Of a stretch of DNA of 64,000 nucleotides, positions 26,474-55,436 are shown piece after piece. The notes under the pieces were generated by a model. It made no database searches, was not told the DNA's origin, and saw nothing but the letters and a program-made list of their open reading frames with translations. Source of the DNA: Lytechinus pictus (lineage: Eukaryota); contig NC_087251.1 of assembly GCF_037042905.1 (NCBI RefSeq), forward strand, positions 44,952,001 through 45,016,000, read 5' to 3'. A program made the position numbers and the translations under genes. Each line of letters begins with the position of its first letter. The first letter of the stretch is position 1.

Positions 26474-29271
26474 TAGTCCAGGATAGAAGAGGTATAACCT
26501 TGTTTTTTTATATATACAATATTTTTTGATGGTTTCTTGTCAATTCGAGGGTGCTGATTACGAATCTGAATGATGCCACTCGTGTAACCTTGAGCATTTT
26601 CCGCAAATTGGCAAAATCCAATATGGCCGCCAAAATATGCAAATTACCCATGAAAATCATAAAATTGTCCGCACATTGGCTATGAAATGCATGGAATTGT
26701 GTGGCAGGAGTGAAATACTCTCTGAAAAAATATTTTTTGACAAAATATTTATTTTCCTGATATTCAAAATGGCCGCCATAGGCCCTTGTATACTCTATTA
26801 TGTACAATATGAATAGGGAAAACTAATTTTCACAAAAATGAGCACTAAACTGCAAAAAATTGCGATGTATGAACGAAGTAATATATGCAAATCATCATTA
26901 CTAACGAGATATATCATTTATTATGTCATATATGGGAACATTGCTGCATGTATTTTGATATCTAAAATAGCCACCACTGGCCCAAACAGCATTGCGTACA
27001 ATGGCAATGGGGGCAAAAAATTCACAAGAGTGATCACTAAAATGCTTGTTATGAAGATTAAACGAGTGGAATACTGACTAAAAACATAATTGTTAACGAA
27101 ATATATTATTAATATGCCATGTTTGTGATAAATATTGTATTTTGATATTCAAAATGGCTGCCAAAGGCCATAAAAGTATTATGCACAATGAGAGAGAGGA
27201 GCAAAGAAATCACAACAGTGAGCACTAAAATGCATATATATGTGATAAATTAATGGGATACTGTCTAAAACGTATTTTCTAATGAAATATATCATTCCGG
27301 TTTCAAGTTTGTGTTAAATACTGTATTTTGAATGTCAAAATGGCCGCCATTGACATTAACTGTTTTATGTACAATGCAAAGTGGGAAACCAATATTCACA
27401 GGAGTGAGCACCATAAATGCACATATTAATAGTGATCTATGAGTAAAATATTGTCTGAAAGCATAATTTCTATTAAGATATATCATTTATTCTGCCAGTT
27501 AGGTGGTAAATACTGTTATTTTAAAGTCAAAATTGCCGCTCAGACAGGCCCATACGGTATTATGCACAATGAGAATGGGAACAAATCATTTCAACAGAAT
27601 TTGGCTTTGCTTGGCCAAATGGTGATGTATGAGTGAAATATTGTCTGAAAACACGATTTGTAACAAAATATATCATATCTTATGTAATTTATAGGTGTTG
27701 AATACTGTATTTCAACATTCAAAATGGCTGCCATATGCCCTTTTTGTGAACATTATTGTCTCCACTCAAATTATATATTTTACGATAAGGGCCTATGGTG
27801 GCCATTTTCAATTTAAGAATGCAGCATTTATCACCTTAATTACACAACATTAGGATATATGTCGTTAGAAACCATGGTTTTAGACAATAATTCACCCTTA
27901 CATCACAATTCACAATTATATGCAAATATTTAGTGTCAAGCAAAGCCAAATTCTGTCAAAATTATATGTCCCATGTTACAATGTACACAATACTTTTAGG
28001 ACCTATGGCAGCCATTTTGGATTTCAAAGTACAGCATTTATTTACTCCACGACCAATATGTGATGTATTTAGTTAGAAATCATGTTTAAGACAATATTTT
28101 TACTCGTACATCACAGTTATATGCATTTTATGATTCTCACACTTGTGAAAATTAGTTTGCCTGTTCGCATGTTACATAATTTAGTTAGGGCTTGTAGAGG
28201 TTATTTTGAATGTCAAAATACAGTATTTATCACCTATATGGCAGAACAAATGCTATAATTTATTTAAAAAATATGTTTTCAAATAACATTTTACTCATAC
28301 AACAGGATTACATATGGATGTCATAGTCAAGCAAATCCAAATTCTTACAAAATTGTATGTCCCCATTCACATTGTAGATAATACTGTTAGGGCCTATATA
28401 GGGGCCATTTTGAATTTCATAATACAGCATTTATCTCATGCATGCATGACAAAAGAAATGATATGTCTTGCTATAAAACATGTTGTCAGACAATATTTTA
28501 CTCGCAAATCGCAATTACATGCATTTATGTTTCTTACTCGTGTGAAAATTAGTTTCTCCATTCGCATTGTATATGATAAATATAGGGCATATGGCGGCCA
28601 TTTTGAATTTCAAAATACAGCATTTATCACACAAATGGCATATTAACCTGTTTTTAGTCAGTATTCCCCTCGTTTATGTTAATAATATGCATTTTAGTGC
28701 TCACTCTTGTCATTTGTTTTGCCCCAGCCATTCCATTGTACATAATACTCTTTGGACCAGTGGCGACTATTTTAGACATCAAAATACAGCAATGTTCCCA
28801 TATATGACATAATAAATGATACATCTCGTTAGTAATGATGATTTGCATATATTACCTCGTTCATACATCGCGATTTTTTGCAGTTTAGTGCTCTTTTTTT
28901 GTGAAAATTAGTTTTCCCTATTCATATTGTACATAATAGAGTATACAATGGCCTATCGCGGCCATTTTGAATATCAGGAAAATAAATATTTTGTCAAACA
29001 TTATTTTTTCAGAGAATATTTCACTCCTGCCAAACAATTTCATGCATTTCATAGCCAATGTGCGGACAATTTTATGATTTTCATGGGTAATTTGCATATT
29101 TTAGCGGCCATATTGGATTTTGCCAATTTCCGGAAAATGCTCAAGGTTACACGAGTGGCATCATCCAGATTCGTAATCAGTACCCTCGAATTGACAAGAA
29201 ACCATCAAAAAATATTGTATATATAAAAAAACAAGGTTTGGTCAATATTCTATGGGGCCTATCCTGGACTA
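26474..29271. mobile_element. Non-autonomous Academ-like DNA transposon with very long TIRs
   Basis: tta|TAGTCCAGGATAG ... CTATCCTGGACTA|tta: 3-bp TSD and TAG..CTA ends as in Academ. More than 600 bp of near-identical inverted arms, then diverged ~190-bp subrepeats; no transposase seen. Confidence 0.8.
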
Positions 29272-29274
29272 TTA

Positions 29275-29542
29275 TCAGTTACTACATACCAAGTAGGTCT
29301 TTGCGCTCATCCACTTCTGGCTTCCTTGTTATTCCAAAAGTTTCAAAAACCTGGTGGGAAAGATCATTTGCTTTTGCATGCCCCACTTTGTGGAATAGTC
29401 TTCCTGAAGACATAAAAAAATGTACCTCTGTCGAAACTTTCAAAAATCTAAAAACTTTTTTATTTAACTCTTAGCTCTTTACGCGCCTTTAGCACTCTAC
29501 AGAGTGGATTTGGCGCTTTATAAGTCACATTGTTATTATTAT
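29275..29542 (+). mobile_element. 3' end of an L2/CR1-group LINE; its 5' piece is at 26446-26473
   Basis: ISYYIPSRSLRSS...RSFAFACPTLWNSLPEDIK..S..TFK.LKTFLF is the typical L2 ORF2 C-terminus, followed by a gcgcc..ggcgc stem and (TTA)n tail. Confidence 0.85.
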
Positions 29543-42050: not shown

Positions 42051-42421
42051 AGTACAGTGAAGTTTACTATAATAAACTTGATTACTTTTTCATCTTACAG
42101 GGACTGGAATAATTGAGTTGTTACTTTTCTTTGGTTCACAGCTTCACCTCATGGCTGAGAGGAGGCTTACACAGCTGATCGATGACAGTGCTACTTAAAG
42201 TGAGTATAGGGAAATAAAGATAGTTGCAGTTCATTTAAATAAATCTTGATTATGGAATGCCAATAATGCAATATTGAGTAATTTCAAGTTTGGTGTTAGT
42301 TTGCAAGCACGATTGCGATCACCTACCATAACACCTAATGGGACTTTATAACAAGAATGATCCAAATCACATTGTTAGCTCAACATAAAGTGAGATTTGT
42401 TCTTTAACCAGCTTCACTTAA

Positions 42422-43006
42422 AGGGGAATGAAACCTTTGGAATAAGTAGGCTTGTGTCGGAACAGAAAAGTCAAAGAATAAGAACAAAGAAAGTTTGAGA
42501 AAAATCAGACAAATAATGAGAAATTTATGAGCATTTGAATATTGCAATCACTAATGCTATGGAGATCCTCCGATTGGCAATGCGACAAGGATGTGTGATG
42601 TCACATGTGAACAACTTTCCCTTTGATGGACTATAAAATACCCTCAAAATGTCTCTTTCTGCTTGTTCTTGTGGTGATACAAACTCTTTATCTATGATGT
42701 ATTCTTTAAAAATCTGTATTACATGCCCTCCTATAGAAAGAACACATGATCTACTGATAGATGTGATAAAAGAGGCAATTTAAGTGAAATATATACTAAA
42801 GTAATGAGGAGAGTTGTTCACAAGTGACATCACACATCATTGTCGCATTGCCAATTTGAGGATCTCCATAGCATTAGTGATCGCAATATTCAAATGCTCA
42901 TAACTTTCTCATTATTTGTCCGATTTTTCACAAACTTTTGTTGATCTGTTTCTTTGATTTTTCTGTTTTCACACAAGCTATCTTGTTCCAAAGGTTTCAT
43001 TCTCCT
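42422..43006. mobile_element. Kolobok/T2-type MITE, family D
   Basis: ttaa|aggggaatgaaacctttggaa ... ttccaaaggtttcattctcct|ttag, with ~190-bp inverted arms. Confidence 0.85.
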
Positions 43007-43065
43007 TTAGCCCTATCTAGGCCGGGGTATTTTTTTGGAGTTCATATGGCTGGGGGGGGGGGGGG

Positions 43066-46000
43066 TGTTACACCCACAAATGTAATAATCGCCCACAAAT
43101 GTAATAACGCCCACAAATGTAATAACACTTTACCCACAAATGTAATAACGCCCACAAATGTAATAACACTTTACCCACAAATGTAATAATTTCGCCCACA
43201 AATGTAATAATGCACTTTACCCACAAATGTAATAATTTTTGATCGCCCACAAATGTAATAATGACTTTACCCACAAATGTAATAAATTTGAAGGGATTTT
43301 TGGCGAATCCGTTCTAAACTAAAATCCTGTAGTAATGCGTTCATAAAGCAATGGACCTATTGTAATAGGTCCATGATATAGCACAAAAGTGCAAAGTCTC
43401 TTTTCCAGACCCGGTTGTTTCAAAAATTATAATAGAAGTCCAAAGTCTTTTTTCCAGACCCGGTTGTTTCAAAAATTATAATATAAGTCCAAAGTCTTTT
43501 TTCCAGACCCGGTTGTTTCAAAAATTATAATATAAGTCCAAAGTCTTTTTTCCAGACCCATTGTTTCAAAAATTATAATATAAGTCCAAAGTCTTTTTTC
43601 CAGACCCGGTTGTTTCAAAAATTATAATATAAGTCCAAAGTCTTTTTTCTAGACCCGGTTATTTAAAAAATTAAAATATAAGTCCAAAGTCTTTTTTCCA
43701 GACCCGGTTGTTTAAAAAATTATGATATAAGTCCAAAGTCTTTTTTCCAGACCCGATTGTTTCAAAAATTATAATATAAGTCCAAAGTCTTTTTTCCAGA
43801 CCCGGTTGTTTCAAAAATTATAATATAAGTCCAAAGTCTTTTTTCTAGACCCGGTTATTTAAAAAATTATAATATAAGTCCAAAGTCTTTTTTTCAGACC
43901 CGGTTGTTTAAAAAATTATAATATAAGTCCAAAGTCTTTTTTCTAGACCCGGTTGTTTAAAAAATTATAATATAAGTCCAAAGTCTTTTTTCCAGACCCG
44001 GTTGTTTAAAAATTTATAATATAAGTCCAAACTAAGATACGATAATAATATTCCAGTGGAATGGAAATGAAACTCGAGCTTAGTCTTTTCTCCAGACCCA
44101 GTTAATCAAAACTGGTGGAATTAATGTCTTTGTTGTTGTTTTAACTTACACGGCACTTATTGTGAATATATGCGCTAAGAGTAAATTGAGAATCAAGCGT
44201 AGTGTTTTCTCCAGACCCAGTTACTTAAAACTAAAAACTAAAAACCTTTACCCACAAATGTAATAATTTCACCCCACAAATGTAATAATGCACTTTACCC
44301 ACATATGTAATAATTTTTGATCGCCCACAAATTTTAATAATGACTTTACCCACATAATTATGTTACAAAATTTGAAGGGATTTTTGGCGAATTTGTTCTA
44401 AAATAAAACCCTATAGTAATGCGTTCATATAGTGCAAAGTCACAGTCTTTTTTCTCTAGACCCGGTTATATAAAACATTTAAACAATCTTCCACAATAAA
44501 GATCCCAAAATTAATTCTTCTTATTGTTGAATAACATAGAAGTTTAGCGTAGTCTTTGCTCCAGACCCAAATATTTCAAATAGCAAATAATAAATAATAA
44601 TAAAAAAAAAAAAAAGACCCCACGACTTTATTAATGTTGAACAAAATGTAAATATAGCATAGTCATTCCTCCAGACCCAGTTATAAAAAAACTCATTCAA
44701 AAACAAAAGAACAACAACAGCAACCAAAAACAGACCCCGCCATCTTTTCAACATTGAATAGCGTGTGTTTAAGTTTCGTCAGACGTGTATCAATCAAATA
44801 TCATTATTTACGTCTGGGACCAACCTCTATCGTCACCATCCGAAACACGTGACCAGGGCTCGAACCTCGAACCTCTGCATCAATTTGTAACTTCCCCACA
44901 TAGCTTGGATTACAGGCACTCGCCACAACGCCCAGTTAGTATCGAAATATGGTGTAGTCTTTGTTCCAGCCCCGGTTATTTCACAATTGCATATCATAAA
45001 GAACACTATTAACAAAGACCCCCTATCTCATTGATGTTGAATAACTTGAAAATATAACGTAGTCTTTTTTCAAGACCCAGTTATTTTAAAATAACAAATC
45101 ATAGAAAAGATATATAATAATAATAAAACAAAGGCCCCACAGTCTTACTGATGTTGAATAACATGGAAATATAGCGTAGTCTTTCCTCCAGACCCACTTA
45201 TTTCAAAATTACAAATCATTTTTAAAAGAGTCAACAAGAAACAAAACCCCCCCTCTCTTATTAATGTTAAATAACATGGGAATATAGCGTAGTCTTTCAT
45301 CCAGACCCAGCTCTTTCAAATAACAAATGAATAATAATAATAATAAATTAATAATAATAAAAAAACAACGACCCACGATCCTATTCATGTTGAATGATAT
45401 GGAAATATAGCGTGGTCTTTTCTCAAGACCCAGTAATAAAAATCATTAAAAAACACAACAACAACAACAAAACAAAGACTCTGCAATCTTATCAACTTTG
45501 GATAGCATGGAAATATGGTGTAGTCTTTGCTCCAAACCCAGTTATTTCAAAATAGGAAATTATAAGAAACAATAAAAAGAAACAAACAGTATCAGTAAAG
45601 ACCCCACAATATCATTGATGTAGAAAAGCATTGTTGTTGTTATCTTGGATTTTAAGGCGCGTATCATATGATTATTTACGCCTATGATTAATTTGTCGTC
45701 TTTGTGGTATGTGTTATCACATGACTTTTATAGTTTGGCTCAATTTGTATTTTTAAGAGAACCGGGTGTGGGGTAAAGACAACACTCTAAACCCAAGCAT
45801 TTTAACTGGGTTTAATTTTGAAGATTGGTCTTAGCCTAGATTTTTTTTCAATGATTGTTTATCTTTTAAATAACCGGGTCTAGATAGAAAGACTAATCAT
45901 AATACTCTGGTTATTCCACAGGAATAAGAATATGACAAAGTTTTATGTTTTTAAGATTGTTTAAATCATTTTTTAAATGACTGGGTCTGGAATAAAGACA

Positions 46001-48219
46001 ACGCTCTAAACATGTGCTTTTTTACATGGTCTTAATTTGGAGGATTGATGGTTCTTAGATTCGTTGTTGGGGGTTGGGTTTTTTATTGCTTTTTTATTCT
46101 TGAAATAACTGTGTCTGGAGGAAATTCTACAATCGATCTTCATGTTATTCCACAGTAATTAGATTATTGGGTATTCGTTTTAAAATATTTGTAAAAACTA
46201 TTTTATTTTTTCAAATAATAACCAACTCTTGAAAAAAGATGATTGCTTTACCCATGCATTATTACAATGTTTTGTAGGGGTCTTTATTATAAAAAAAAAA
46301 ATGGGTGTGGGGTAAAGACATTTTTTTCTGGGTGTAACTTTTGAAAATTGGTCTTAGATTTGAAGTATTTTTAAATTTCATTTTTTAAATAACTGGGTCT
46401 GGAGGAAAGAGTACGTTTTGAATCTCGTCTTATTCCACAAGAATAAGAATATGATAGGGTCTTACGTTAGAAGATTTTTTTTTGGGGTAATATTTTCAAT
46501 GATTAGGTCTGGAATAAAGACAACGTTCTTAACCTCTTTTTAAAACAGGTTCTTAGGTTGAAGGATTGCTTGGTCTTATATTTGTAGTTTTTTATTATTA
46601 CTATTTGCGATATTTTGAAAAAAATAACTGGGTCTGGCTGAAAGACTACTCTATATGTCCATGTTATCCATCATTAACAAGATTATGGAGTCTTTATACT
46701 GTTTTTGTTGTTGTATTGTTATTTATAATTTTGGAATAACATGGTTTAGAGAAAAGACTAAGCTCAATTTTCATTTTTATTCCACTGGAATATCATTATG
46801 GTATCTTAGTTTGGACTTATATTATGATTTTTGAAAAAACCGGGTCTGGAAAAAAGATTTTGGACTTATATTATACTTTTTTACTCAAACAGGTCTGGAA
46901 AAAAGACTTTGACTTTTATTATAATCTTTTAATTAACCGGGTCTGGAAAAAAGACTGCACTTTTGTGCTATATGAACGCATTACTATAGGGTTTTAGTTT
47001 TTAGTTTTAAGTAACCGGGTCTGGAGAGAAGACTACGCTTGGTTCTGAATTTACTCTCAGCGCATATATTCACAATACGCGCCGTATAATTAAAAAGAAA
47101 AAAAGACATTTATTCCACCAGCTTTAATTAACTGGGTCTTGAGAAAAGACTAAGCTCGTTTCTCATTTTTATTCCACTGGAATAGCATTATCGTATCTTA
47201 TTTTGGACTTATATTATAATTTTTGAATTAACCGGGTCTGGAAAAAAGATTTTACACTTTTGTGCTATATGAACGCATTACTATAGGGTTTTAGTTTTTA
47301 ATTTTAAGTAACTGGGTCTGGAGAAAAGACTACACTTGATTCTCAATTTACTCTTTGCGCATATATTCACGATATGCGCCGTATTAGTTAAAACCACAAC
47401 AAGACATTAATTTCACAAGTTTTAATTAACTGGGTCTGGAGAAAAAACTAAGCTCGATTCTTATTTTTATTCCACTTGAATATCATTATCGTATCTTAGT
47501 TTGGACTTATATTATAATTTTTGAAACAACCGGGTCTGGAAAAAAGACTTTGGACTTATATTATAATTTTCGAAACAACCGGGTCTGGAAAAAAGACTTT
47601 GGACTTATATTATAATTTTTAAAATAACTGGGTCTGGAAAAAAGACTTTAGACTTATATTATGATTTTTTAAACAACCGGGTCTGGAAAAAAGACTTTGG
47701 AATTATATCATAATTTTGGAAACAACCGGGTCTAGAAAAAAGACTTTGGACTTATATTATAATTTTTGAAACAACCGGGTCTGGAAAAAAGACTTTGGAC
47801 TTATATTATAATTTTTTAATCAACCGGGTCTGGAAAAAAGACTTTGGACTTACATTATAATTTTTTAATTAACCGGGTCTGGAAAAAAGACTGCACTTTT
47901 GTGCTATATCATGGACCTATTACAATAGGTCCATCGCTATATGAACGCATTACTACAGGATTTAAGTTTAGAACAGATTCGCCAAAAAATCCCTTCAAAT
48001 TTATTACATTTGTGGGTAAAGTCATTATTACATTTGTGGGCGATCAAAAATTATTACATTTGTGGGTAAAGTGCATTATTACATTTGTGGGTGAAATTAT
48101 TACATTTGTGGGTAAAGTGTTATTACATTTGTGGGCGTTATTACATTTGTGGGTAAAGTGTTATTACATTTGTGGGCGTTATTACATTTGTGGGCGTTAT
48201 TACATTTGTGGGTGCAACA
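43066..48219. mobile_element. Non-autonomous foldback transposon with modular tandem-repeat TIRs
   Basis: TGTTACACCCACAAATGTAATAA ... TTATTACATTTGTGGGTGCAACA, flanked by G runs. Mirrored 17-24-bp outer repeats, a 49-bp satellite (13 left, 8 right copies) and ~120-bp inner repeats. Confidence 0.85.
44766..44936 (-). mobile_element. SINE-like insert with a 7SL (SRP Alu-domain)-derived head
   Basis: Minus strand ACTGGGCGTTGTGGCGAGTGCCTGTAATCCAAGCTA matches human 7SL nt 1-36 (as recalled) at 29/36, followed by B-box-like GGTTCGAGCCC. It interrupts one host repeat unit. Confidence 0.65.
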
Positions 48220-51200
48220 GGGGGCTTGAGATCTCGGCTGTCGACCGCGCAATCGCGCCAAAAATTGGCACGCCTCTAACTCCCTAAATAAAGCTCCAAA
48301 TGTTCTAATTTTTGCTATAGAAACTCTTTGTGGTGTTCTTAGCAAGTGTACATGAACAAAATTGCGATATCAAATCATTTTCTTATGTATTATATTGTTT
48401 TTTGCAATTTCTTAAGTATTTCTTTGGTTTTTTTTACCTTTTGTTTTTCATTGTTTTTTCAATGAAATTTGTTGAGGACTCTTCTGAGATCATAAAAAGC
48501 ATAAAATGAATACATTTAGATCAGCAAAACTAAAAATAATCATACATTTATGATTTTTGGTTGAAAACACAATTTGCATTGACTTTGTACACAAAATCAC
48601 GTTTTTGAGCAATTTTTGGTCTGACATGCACTTACATAATGTTGCGTAATTTCGGAACCACATACCAGGGTGACGAAAAATTGGTCTCAAAAGTTGCGCA
48701 AGACTTGAAATTAAAAAGTCAGCGAGCGGCGCGGTAAAAAAAAATTTGTGCGGCAAAACTATTGCGTGGATCGTTAAGGGGGCCTCCGAGGCCCCCCCCC
48801 CCCCCCCCGGCCTGGATAGGGTTAAACATAAATGCCCACTTCTAGTGACAACATATAAATGAGTTCAAACAGAATCTAATAAAATGACCACCCAAGTGTT
48901 TTGAGTGTTTGTATGTATTTGATAATGAACAAATATGTGCCAGATGATTTTAGTAGAAAAATGTGTAATTGGTGAGAAATGGACAGAATAAAAAAAAGGC
49001 AGTCCAGGCAGGCATTGGGTCTTCTTTTTTTCCAAGCAATGATGATACACTGTACCACGTGTGCTTATCTGTGTTTGTGATCTTGAGTGTGATCATTTTC
49101 AGCCAATATTTCATGATTTCACAGATTTAGATTTATGTACAGGTAAATGAACCATGACTAGGTAGAGTGATTCTAGATGATGTATGATTTCAGTTATGAC
49201 ACAGTGTACTTCTTCATCAAAGAGGCTCTTTTCAGAAGAAAACATTTTAGAGAAATTATTTTTTCAATGTTGGAAATATATGTGTGTAAACATCATGCCT
49301 TATGCTGCAATATGCACATATGACAACTAGATACAGTGTAATTGTGTAAATTAGCAAGATGTTATTGACGATGTCAATGAATTGATGCAAATCCCCAAAT
49401 TAAATTTTGCTGAAAGTGTTTCAGTGTAGTCTACCGGTCGTACATTTGTCCTAAATGCAAAATTTTATTAAATCCTGTGGAGATGTGTCACAGTACAATT
49501 AAAAGTTTTTATACAGGATATATTGTTAGAACTTAGAATAATGTTTTGTTCTTTCTCCTTATACTTGCAGTCATGTCACTCGGTGTACAACATGGATGCA
49601 CCCCCTATCTGGGAAAGTCTACCAGAGCTAAAGATGTGACACCAATCTTGACATCTTCATCTGCACTGAATGTTTGGTGTGATCATTTGTTGGTAGATAC
49701 ATGGACATGATGTATAACCCACCGGTATATAAAGACCGCCTGCTCAGAAAGACCAATTGTTATATCCTTTGAAATATACAACAAAAGAACCTGTTTTGTA
49801 AATACCTCTTTTTCTTATCTCTGAGAGAGGCGACTACCAGGGACTGGTACTTTGACACCAGACATTGTACACGCTCTGTTTTTGGTGCTCCACCTATCGA
49901 TTTAATATGGAAATTTCCACCATGTAAATCAAATTGAACGAACCAAATGTCATTTTAAAAAGACTATCTGAATTCGCTACTAATGAACCTGGGTAGGAAA
50001 TCGTGTTTAAACTTTATTTTTAGGGGCTATTTTTGTCCACAATGGGGTGATTGCTGACTTTTGGGGGCTATTTCTTTCATATTAAGAGCTACTTTTTTGT
50101 GCAACAAGCACTTACGCTGCAAAAGCATTTCTCATCATTCTGCTGTATGTAGAAAATCAATTTTTAGACAAGATTTTGCGCCCCAAAGTGTTCAATTTGG
50201 TGAATTTATAGGGAATTTTCCAACACTGTCATGAATCTATTTTTAGGTATTTTATGATGTCTTTTGTGTATCTCAAAGGAGCAGGTCCAAGCTATTATCT
50301 CTGAACAGTGATTTTCAGTTTAAATAAAAATTTCCTTTTCTCTTTCTGGAAACCTTTTATTCAATTTCAAACTTGATCTATAATGAAACTACGTTTGTGA
50401 GAGAAAATGTACACATAAAAAGCATGAATTCCATTTTGCAATGAGTTTTCTCCCTGAAAGTATAAAACCAAAACAGATTTTTCGTTTTGATTTACCAGTA
50501 AACAGAAAATCACTGTTCCTAATTATTTGCTGACTTTCCAAATTATCTGTTTCATTATTGGATGTATACTATGTAGGCCATGATTACTAGGAGAAAATGA
50601 TATGTGCACAAAGTTGCAAATGATTTTCAAGTATCATGAGGTTTATAATTAATATGGCTTGTAGGTTTTTGTGGAGTTATCTTGGTTTACATGAAGTTTA
50701 TAGTAATTGTGTTTATGTTGTGTTTACTATTCTGCAAAAGTGGACCCAAAGGTTTTCCAGAGTTTTTCTCGAATGAATATTATCTCTGGTTTTTTACCCT
50801 GGATCTACTTGTCGTAGAATTGTTTAAAGGGAAACGCAAGTCCCGGACCATGGGGGAAATTGGATCGTAAGCAATTTGCAAAAGGCTTGTTTACTTTATA
50901 CACACAGTAATAATACTGTACTGGATTAACGAAATCAAAAATTGGAAAGCGCAAATTCAACCCATCCCATTTATTTTGAGTTGCCAAAGTTCTCTTTAAA
51001 CCTTCGTCGTAGACTCTTAACTGGTCTCTTGATTGTTAATCCAAATAAACTTCATGTATTACGCGTATATGTTCAAAGTGAAAATTTAGTTTGCTTCTTG
51101 ATGGCTCAGCACCAGTTATGTAATACCCCTTTAGGTTTGTATGGGGTTCAACTTGTAATTGCTTTTTCTTATGTGACCAGGCACCCCCAAACCAACAAGA

Positions 51201-54517: not shown

Positions 54518-55243
54518 CTCTATCTAGGCCGGGGTATTTTTTTTTGGGGGGGCCTCCCAGGCCCCCCCCCCCCTTGAGATCTCGACCGTGCCGAAAATTG
54601 GCACGCGCGTTGTCTGGAACATAATCTACAAAATTGTATAGTAATTTATTTCATGCGAATCGCTATTAAGTGATTATGCTAATTTATGCGTAATTAGTAT
54701 GCGAAATCATACTCTTTCCTCTAACTCCCTAAATAAAGCTCATAATGTTCTAATTTTTGGTATAGAAACTTTTTGTGGTGTTCTTAGCAAGTGTACATGA
54801 ACAAAATTGCGATATCGAATTGTTTTCTTATGTATTATATTGTTTTTTGAAATTTCTTATGTATTTCTGTGTTTTTCATTGTTTTTTCAATCAAATTTGT
54901 TGGGGACTCTTTTGAGATCATAAAAAGCATAAAATTAATACATTTAGACCAGCAAAACTAAAAATAATCATACATTGATGACTTTTGGTTAAAAACACAA
55001 TTTGCATTGACTTTGTACACAAAATCACGTTTTTGAGCAATTTTTGGTCTGACTTGCACTTACATAATGTTGCGTAATTTCGGAACCATGTACCCGGGTG
55101 ATGCAAAATTGGTCTCAAAAGTTGCGCAAGACTTGAAAGTAAAAAGTCAGCGAGCGGCGCGGTCAAAAAATTTGTGCGGCAAAAATATTGCGCAAATCGT
55201 TGAGGGGGGGCCTCCGAGCCCCCCCCCCCCGGCCTAGATAGGG
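54518..55243. mobile_element. piggyBac-like MITE, uninterrupted copy
   Basis: ttaa|ctctatctaggccgggg ... ccccggcctagataggg|ttaa. Confidence 0.85.
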
Positions 55244-55436
55244 TTAAACCAAATGCACTTGTTTGAATCCTAATAAGGCAGATTCTTGAAGTCTTTGTCA
55301 ACGTTCATTTTCTGTGTCCAGGAGGAAACGTACTTTGTTTGGAAAGAATTTTAAATGGATTTCCTGTGTTCATCAAGTTCAGATATTCAGAAATCAAATG
55401 TAATTCCTTAAAGTGAGGAGAAGTTACTGTGTTTAA

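Follow-up and report, generated by a model that had tools for sequence, protein, structure and literature searches.

A SINE family with a 7SL RNA-like head in the sea urchin Lytechinus pictus, and its carriage by a foldback transposon

A window of 64,000 nucleotides (nt) from the sea urchin Lytechinus pictus (NCBI RefSeq assembly GCF_037042905.1, contig NC_087251.1, positions 44,952,001 to 45,016,000 of the forward strand) carries on its minus strand a short interspersed element (SINE) whose 5′ end resembles 7SL RNA of the signal recognition particle (SRP). We hold with high confidence that this element is a 7SL-headed SINE, composed of a 47-nt 7SL head, a hairpin of ~40 nt bearing a B box and a 3′ module of ~98 nt, and that it resides as a passenger in a foldback transposon. 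The copy in the window is an old, decayed and dead member of a non-autonomous retrotransposon family. It is ~175 nt long, with its 5′ start at position 44937/44936 and its 3′ end at 44763, and it shares 93–95% identity with 45 other copies while being ~5% diverged from other foldback-borne copies. Elements of the family measure ~165–175 nt plus (CA)n and are spread over many contigs, as expected from the SINEBase definition of a SINE as a short (<1 kb) interspersed repeat (PMC3531059).

Structurally, the head corresponds to the 5′ domain of the Alu domain in SRP RNA, with helices 2, 3 and 4 and the UGUAAU turn, and the 7SL box-A region lies within it. The program cmscan was run both at the Rfam gathering score (70 bits, whole window) and in E-value mode (501 nt). 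In the latter mode, the head matches the Metazoa_SRP model (RF00017) with a score of 31.6 bits (E = 1.6e-6). The alignment has a high posterior probability throughout helices 2–4 and the UGUAAU turn and is empty beyond them. Other copies of the SINE yield 31.9–34.9 bits in a whole-genome search, with E-values of 6.7e-5 to 5e-4 per genome. When folded alone at minimum energy, the head forms two hairpins and leaves UGUAAU unpaired, and the equivalent stretch of the host 7SL gene designated L037 does likewise. A mir-1268 match over the head, weaker than that to RF00017 (24.2 bits), was interpreted as an echo of Alu-like sequence, mir-1268 being Alu-derived.

The host genome encodes seven full-length 7SL genes scoring 272–283 bits, of which three are in tandem on contig C10, three are on C1 and one (L037) is on C12. 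Counted from the start, consensus-like SINE copies are identical to L037 at 31/31, 42/47 and 48/60 nt, and to L031, one of the C10 genes, at 30/31, 38–40/47 and 44–45/60 nt. The 44–48 identities over 60 nt exceed the level that SINEBase uses to assign 7SL ancestry (at least 60% identity over at least 60 nt), the real similarity being confined to the first 47 nt. Matches fall to chance level past this point, such that the similarity starts at the 7SL start site and stops exactly at the end of the 5′ domain. Helix 2 is formed by pairing of the first three and last three bases of the head, and one of its pairs is U-A in both the SINE and L037 and C-G in the other six 7SL genes, with both sides changed. 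Because of the identity to the host genes and this shared helix-2 pair, the head is a copy of the host’s own 7SL and is most like the L037 type.

A previous interpretation of the window made from its letters (the sequence-only reading) had already proposed a 7SL-derived SINE here, and several of its particulars can be compared with these findings. Its preference for the host’s 7SL over contamination by Alu is borne out by the identity of typical copies to host genes at 30–31/31 and 38–42/47 nt. It placed the element at 44766..44936 on the minus strand, where the letters are as quoted, except that 44766 lies inside the CA tail and the true end is 44763. The end of the similarity, which it put after ~45 nt, falls at nt 47, and the B-box-like motif that it saw downstream of the head is GGTTCGAGCCC. 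Its account of helix 3 did not hold. The U-A pair said to preserve the structure is not family-wide, its A being private to the window copy, and as for the other changes relative to human 7SL, both 5′-side U nucleotides also occur in host 7SL and a neighbouring U is seen only in foldback-borne copies. Helix 3 is identical between family copies and host 7SL.

The Pfam family Bindin (PF02084), a family of sperm proteins of sea urchins, matches the host genome at 236.7 bits in two adjacent exons and matches none of 14 control genomes, in keeping with an echinoid host. The size of the SINE family was assessed in the 811.7-Mb assembly (368 contigs) by counting 36-mers with up to three mismatches. 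The 36-mer across the junction of head and body, taken from one subfamily, has 777 matches, and a tail 36-mer has 1336; reversed-pattern controls have none. A genome search with the window copy returned 1878 first-look candidates, and the family comprises about a thousand copies or more. Insertion at independent sites was examined in two samples. Among 30 loci that match the carrier-borne window copy best, and are hence biased toward carrier copies, 14 have unique flanks and the other 16 share the flanks of the window copy. A further 20 tail sites were taken in order along contig C1 from those without an exact junction match. All 20 have unique flanks, differing from those in the window. In 17 of them a 7SL-like head is joined to the body by a variant junction, the remaining three being short forms. 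Together with the 42 sites of the carrier junction described below, set against 777 and 1336, these samples show independent insertions outside the foldback element. The condition under which the sequence-only reading would have been refuted, occurrence inside foldback copies alone, thus does not apply.

Ages, tails and target duplications were evaluated in 48 independent full-length copies. Identity to one reference copy is at least 98% in 21 of these and below 90% in five, and by this measure the family is young, although it did not spread in one burst. The first base of a copy corresponds to the start site of 7SL, in many cases preceded by an additional A, and the (CA)n tails at the other end have a median length of 5 units. 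Target duplications that match exactly over 7 nt or more flank 7/48 copies versus 3.5% of shuffled flank pairs. Clear examples of 9–12 nt include loci L014, L022 and L020, with 10–12 nt in L014 and L022.

Two features set subfamilies apart: an indel of 2 nt in the loop of helix 4, and the number of GGTTCGA units, which is one or two. A more diverged subfamily with 85% identity is represented by L079 (G000:C1:43042306), L082 and the ‘TCCCCAGAC’ variants. Without the extra A seen in the common form, its head tracks 7SL further; its middle stem is a perfect 7 base-pairs (bp), and it carries a different A-rich tail variant.

Several unusual arrangements of the SINE were also observed. Locus L021 (G000:C19:10865253-10865952) is a head-to-tail array of at least four units with an identical 3-nt linker, and pairs of SINEs ~185–192 nt apart occur at C2:61992460/61992644, C4:9657048/9657240, C7:25357260/25357450 and C18:1364626/1364816. 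Such tandem arrangements suggest amplification as a unit, in the manner of a young satellite. Loci L028, L069, L070 and L072 belong to another dispersed repeat in which a full SINE or a short form occupies one site (...cttgcacttc, the insert, then actaggtggtac), pointing to a hot spot for insertion or, alternatively, to a second carrier. In addition, each of the tandem 7SL genes on C10 (L031, L035 and L036; G000:C10:7911947-7920824) is preceded by a decayed SINE copy in 7SL orientation that ends 33 nt upstream of the gene start. These copies look like one insertion duplicated with the gene unit.

Downstream of the head, consensus-like copies fold at nt 48–88 into an imperfect hairpin of ~10 bp with the B box on its loop side. 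The GGTTCGA unit is doubled in the subfamily of the window copy and single in other subfamilies. In the 3′ ~98 nt, folding predicts a small hairpin and an interrupted stem-loop of 13 bp, after which come an A-rich stretch and (CA)n; in the window copy the short (CA)n tail runs to 44763. For a 91-nt stretch spanning a short-form copy, the fold has z = -2.63, and 2/200 shuffles fold as well. The sequence-only reading loosely likened the TTTCGGATG...ACG...GGTCC motif to the core of Deu/Nin SINEs, a putative resemblance; a literature search for the motif itself gave irrelevant matches only. This ‘core’ and the tail travel together as one discrete unit of ~98 nt.

That unit also occurs alone, as a short form that consists of the 3′ module with no head and starts within a 4-nt range, 1–2 nt after the hairpin. 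Short forms account for 3/20 of the unbiased tail sites and for 23/30 loci selected for non-SINE sequence upstream (L055, L057, L061–L063, L071–L076, L082–L085 and L088–L090; e.g. G000:C15:19323346). Their flanks are diverse and their tails consist of (CA)n; some are bordered by a target duplication, of 14 nt in the case of L071, and 10/23 are at least 99% identical to the reference copy. The short form could be generated when reverse transcriptase stops, could be a product of tRNase-Z-like processing, or could be an independent tail unit.

The carrier of the window copy (Table 1) is a non-autonomous foldback element. Its arms of ~1.3 kb include 492-nt stretches at 93% complementarity, with the outer 212 nt (43090-43301 versus 47985-48196) being 100% complementary, and no open reading frame of 180 or more amino acids is present in the whole window. 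The ends abut runs of G nucleotides (14 on the left and five on the right), and no unambiguous target duplication was seen. A 36-mer across the junction of carrier and SINE was found at 42 sites on 18 contigs, and 15/15 other sampled carriers align with that of the window over 1.6–3.2 kb at 88.6–94.2%. Carrier-borne SINE copies share two diagnostic substitutions in the aligned loci. The shared junctions, the colinear carriers and the shared substitutions therefore show that one SINE inserted into a 117-bp unit and that the foldback element, in spreading to about 42 dispersed sites, multiplied it. Copies multiplied in this manner make up ~3–5% of the SINE family, and the proposal that the SINE hitchhikes in a DNA transposon is upheld by the many contigs over which the junction is found. 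A DNA transposon can thus multiply a retroposon copy ~40-fold, and such multiplication can mislead copy counts and age estimates.

Table 1. Coordinates of the SINE copy, its parts and the foldback carrier within the 64,000-nt window
Feature	Position	Strand	Basis or description
Whole SINE copy	44763..44937	minus	sequence; boundaries from 30 aligned loci
7SL-derived head, 47 nt	44890..44936	minus	RF00017 alignment; identity to host 7SL genes L031–L037
Middle part, imperfect hairpin with B box in loop region	44849..44889	minus	sequence; fold of consensus-like copies
tRNA-type B box GGTTCGAGCCC	44866-44856	minus	sequence
3′ module	44763..44848	minus	short forms; fold; (CA)n tails
Conserved core, TTTCGGATGG...GGTCCC stretch	44845-44816	minus	sequence
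Long stem-loop of 3′ module	44816-44780	minus	fold
Foldback carrier, ~5.15 kb	43066-48219		tandem repeats, inverted repeats, termini
Left arm	43066..44360		outer 18–50-bp subrepeats (Tandem Repeats Finder periods, consensus start CCCACAAATGTAATAA), inner 49-bp subrepeats
Middle domain, ~117-bp repeats	44361..46729		SINE inside one unit
Right arm, inverted copy of left arm	46730..48219		inverted repeats; terminus

In other ~117-bp units (loci L085, L086 and L026), a short form, a 5′-truncated copy and a second full copy occupy the position homologous to 44763/44937 of the window, which hints that this position is a preferred target of the SINE.

The anatomy of the element suggests how it might be propagated. 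Transcription by RNA polymerase III (Pol III) would begin at the 7SL start site and depend on two internal elements, the box-A region of 7SL and, ~50 nt further downstream, the tRNA-type B box. A tail-specific (‘stringent’) long interspersed element (LINE) would then supply a reverse transcriptase that recognizes the 3′ stem-loop and (CA)n, copies the SINE RNA into new sites and leaves short, variable target duplications. Such a stem-loop and repeat tail would be expected where a SINE has taken over its 3′ end from a LINE that recognises its own tail (Kajikawa and Okada, 2002, cited in PMC7245038). In addition, the 7SL 5′ domain may recruit SRP9/14 and so bring the RNA to ribosomes making LINE protein, as has been proposed for Alu.

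Several observations weigh against the interpretation of this family as a 7SL-headed SINE mobilized by a LINE. No match in the window reaches the Rfam gathering score, the head attaining 31.6 of the required 70 bits, and the covariance check of the SRP assignment is therefore divided: significant by E-value (1.6e-6) and below the gathering score. The 7SL-like part amounts to only 47 nt, with the 3′ part of 7SL absent both by cmscan and in alignments with L031 and L037. A 7SL-type box B is absent as well, because the similarity ends before the box B position given in the available text of PMC7245038; other 7SL SINEs retain both of these features (PMC7245038). A search of sequencing runs, which covered assembled contigs, gave no evidence of transcription: four RNA runs labelled as sea urchin, echinoderm or marine metagenomes contained just a small share (0.10). 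Target duplications went undetected in 41/48 copies, which by a crude exact-match test have only 4–6 nt or nothing. Furthermore, no LINE sharing the SINE tail was recovered. Patterns of the last 25 and last 50 nt with differing upstream sequence gave 3 and 53 matches and no second family, the rows of the 50-nt search being mostly variants of the SINE with one base deleted; these searches detect near-identical tails only, and a diverged LINE tail would escape them. A LINE at L056/L091 (G000:C1:14426539-14430589) was considered as the partner and rejected. Its other copies end in (CAA)n in 11/11 cases, and the SINE tail beside it is for this reason a separate short-form insertion. This LINE encodes reverse transcriptase, RNase H and a C-terminal CCHC motif, and it has 221 first-look candidates, with copies 87–94% identical.

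Some of these observations would also be expected if the family were an ordinary transfer RNA (tRNA)-derived SINE (SINE2) whose likeness to 7SL arose by chance or from a shared box-A motif. The head is indeed followed by a B box of canonical tRNA type and by a hairpin resembling a T arm, and the shortness of the 7SL-like part and its low RF00017 score point the same way. However, we judge this origin to be highly improbable, given that 31/31 and 42/47 nt equal a host 7SL gene, lineage-specific bases and a compensatory helix-2 pair included, and that the similarity opens at the 7SL start site and closes exactly where the 5′ domain does. ARAGORN predicts no tRNA in the window, in the related loci L103 and L104 or around the 7SL genes. 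Moreover, among 41 matches to a core pattern that excludes the common form, there is no tRNA-headed family with the SINE body that could serve as a parent: 39 are point variants of the SINE and two are old degenerate relatives without a recognisable head. The chance that the ~170-nt piece is instead a foldback segment spread only by DNA transposition, rather than a retroposon, is smaller still. That 16/30 of the best matches to the window copy share its flanks might seem to favor this idea, but the share reflects the bias of querying with a carrier-borne copy. Genome-wide counts refute it, with 42 carrier-junction sites against 777 and 1336, and 20/20 tail sites on C1 have other flanks. The variable lengths of the (CA)n ends and the occasional clear target duplications likewise speak for retroposition.

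Given a 7SL-headed SINE, it can be asked what the head contributes. It might serve solely as a Pol III start and box A, with SRP9/14 binding and ribosome recruitment being irrelevant to the success of the family, and we consider this a serious possibility, albeit the less probable one. The closed Alu fold that all other 7SL SINEs retain (PMC7245038), in which the 5′ domain packs on the 3′ domain, is absent. If the SINE relies, as is probable, on a LINE that recognises tails, capture in cis at the ribosome may also be less important. The headless short form of ~98 nt inserts too. However, the piece retained from 7SL ends exactly at the 5′ domain boundary and includes helices 2, 3 and 4 and the U-turn, and in the unbiased sample full-length copies are far more numerous than short forms (17 versus 3). 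The 5′ domain is reported to be the primary SRP9/14 binding site (Weichenrieder et al., 2000). There is also the matter of novelty. We consider it unlikely, but conceivable, that the family has already been catalogued for sea urchins, for example among the Repbase SINE2-n_SP entries and possibly under a tRNA-derived label, since Repbase received entries for several SINE families of sea urchins in 2005 (cited in PMC4758252). In contrast, papers from 2020 (PMC7245038) and 2024 (10.1101/2024.08.25.609555), by a Repbase curator and the SINEBase authors, limit 7SL-derived SINEs to supraprimates, shrew mole and hagfish in the text available, and a literature search on 7SL SINEs in sea urchins and invertebrates found no such report.

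Six of the seven 7SL genes (L031–L036) have a conserved T-arm-like element with GGTTCGAGTCC located 15–45 nt past the terminator and followed by a second T run; L037 lacks it. This element may be a gene-external B box. Yeast U6 uses a gene-external downstream B box. The middle part of the SINE, in the subfamily with the doubled unit, aligns with the element of L035 and L036 at a score of 33, compared with a mean of 15 (standard deviation 2.9) for shuffles. This score is reached by at most 1/500 shuffles (printed p~0.000; the top shuffle is 32 for L035 and 28 for L036), and for the single-unit subfamily p is 0.02–0.08. Because much of the score comes from the B box itself, this weak similarity is only a lead. 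It is improbable, to our minds, that the front of the SINE (~nt 1–90) is a collapsed 7SL gene, made up of the first 47 nt and the downstream B-box element, rather than a chimera of 7SL and a tRNA-derived SINE. If this were true, echinoid 7SL genes would use a gene-external downstream B box, and one deletion of the 7SL body and terminator would have made a read-through Pol III unit able to gain a LINE tail. The short form would then be a tRNase-Z-like processing product or the ancestral tail unit.

Other repeats were noted in the window. The open frame at 29091-29474 (plus strand) has an end motif typical of the LINE ORF2 C-terminus (…LWNSLP…FKNLKTFLF) and probably belongs to a LINE fragment. 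A separate inverted repeat at 42419-43009, immediately to the left of the foldback element and with 202-nt arms, 89% complementary and 187 nt apart, may be a MITE-like element (miniature inverted-repeat transposable element). To the right of the foldback element, the similar minus-strand frames 48490-48864 and 54918-55304, of 124 and 128 amino acids (…SRPGGGG…SEAP…), indicate another dispersed repeat.

7SL-derived SINEs have been known only from supraprimates, the shrew mole and hagfish, according to the accessible text of Kojima, 2020 (PMC7245038) and Kosushkin et al., 2024 (10.1101/2024.08.25.609555), and our full-text literature search found no report of one in sea urchins or other invertebrates. 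All of the known examples keep both ends of 7SL. The suggestion in the sequence-only reading of an independent chimeric SINE1-type family is accordingly supported for the 7SL-derived 5′ end and not for the class feature of both ends, since this family keeps only the 5′ domain, without a 7SL 3′ end or a 7SL-type box B.

The closest counterpart is SINE1-1_EBu (Ebu1-1) of the hagfish Eptatretus burgeri, as described in the portion of PMC7245038 at hand. Both families have a head from the host’s own 7SL in a chimera with other retroposon parts, and both are young, with a few thousand copies or fewer and a microsatellite tail. Ebu1-1 depends on a tail-recognising LINE other than L1, and the same would hold for the sea urchin SINE. 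However, Ebu1-1 keeps 96 nt of the 7SL 5′ end and ~44 nt of the 3′ end compared with 47 nt only, and it has 7SL-type boxes A and B and the capacity for a whole Alu domain, whereas the sea urchin SINE has a tRNA-type B box. Its tail is RTE-derived with (AAC)n rather than (CA)n, and its host is a hagfish rather than an invertebrate.

Alu, FLAM and B1 of Euarchontoglires and Urop of the shrew mole share with the sea urchin SINE a 7SL 5′ end with the U-turn and helices 3 and 4 (10.1101/2024.08.25.609555, in part), and Pol III transcription from internal elements is presumed for all of them. These mammalian families retain both 7SL ends after a central deletion of ~183 nt, carry poly(A) and rely on L1 (10.1101/2024.08.25.609555, same portion), in contrast to the sea urchin SINE, which has no 7SL 3′ part, no poly(A) and a structured LINE-type tail. 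The leftmost unit of the tree-shrew Tu type II element similarly joins 7SL-derived and tRNA-like parts in its head (Kriegs, 2007, cited in 10.1101/2024.08.25.609555). Tu type II is mammalian, L1-dependent and multimeric, and the comparison is by the description in that source only. Deu and Nin-DC SINEs (Nishihara, 2006; Piskurek and Jackson, 2011; named in PMC4758252 and PMC5786205) resemble the family in having a conserved central stretch after the B-box region.

The carrier likewise has known relatives. Long inverted repeats built of subrepeats are found in Drosophila FB, in Tetris and in the sea urchin element of Liebermann et al., 1983 (cited in PMC4079207), the last of which establishes that foldback elements exist in sea urchins. 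A middle domain, the lack of a transposase open reading frame and dispersed copies are also common to these transposons and the carrier (PMC4079207). A SINE passenger multiplied along with the element is a feature of the carrier described here, and the portion of PMC4079207 available mentions none for known foldbacks.

7SL-derived SINEs are extremely rare, with three independent origins, all in vertebrates (10.1101/2024.08.25.609555; Kojima, 2020, PMC7245038; both in the parts available). Despite the rarity of this route, few known mobile elements have been as successful as Alu. If an echinoderm provides a fourth origin, SINEs can arise from 7SL in animals other than vertebrates. In addition, the sea urchin SINE is a natural dissection of the 7SL head, with the 47-nt 5′ domain only, a tRNA-type B box and what would be a tail-recognising LINE rather than L1. 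It thereby becomes testable whether a SINE owes its advantage to the promoter of 7SL, to the binding of SRP9/14 or to the Alu fold as a whole.

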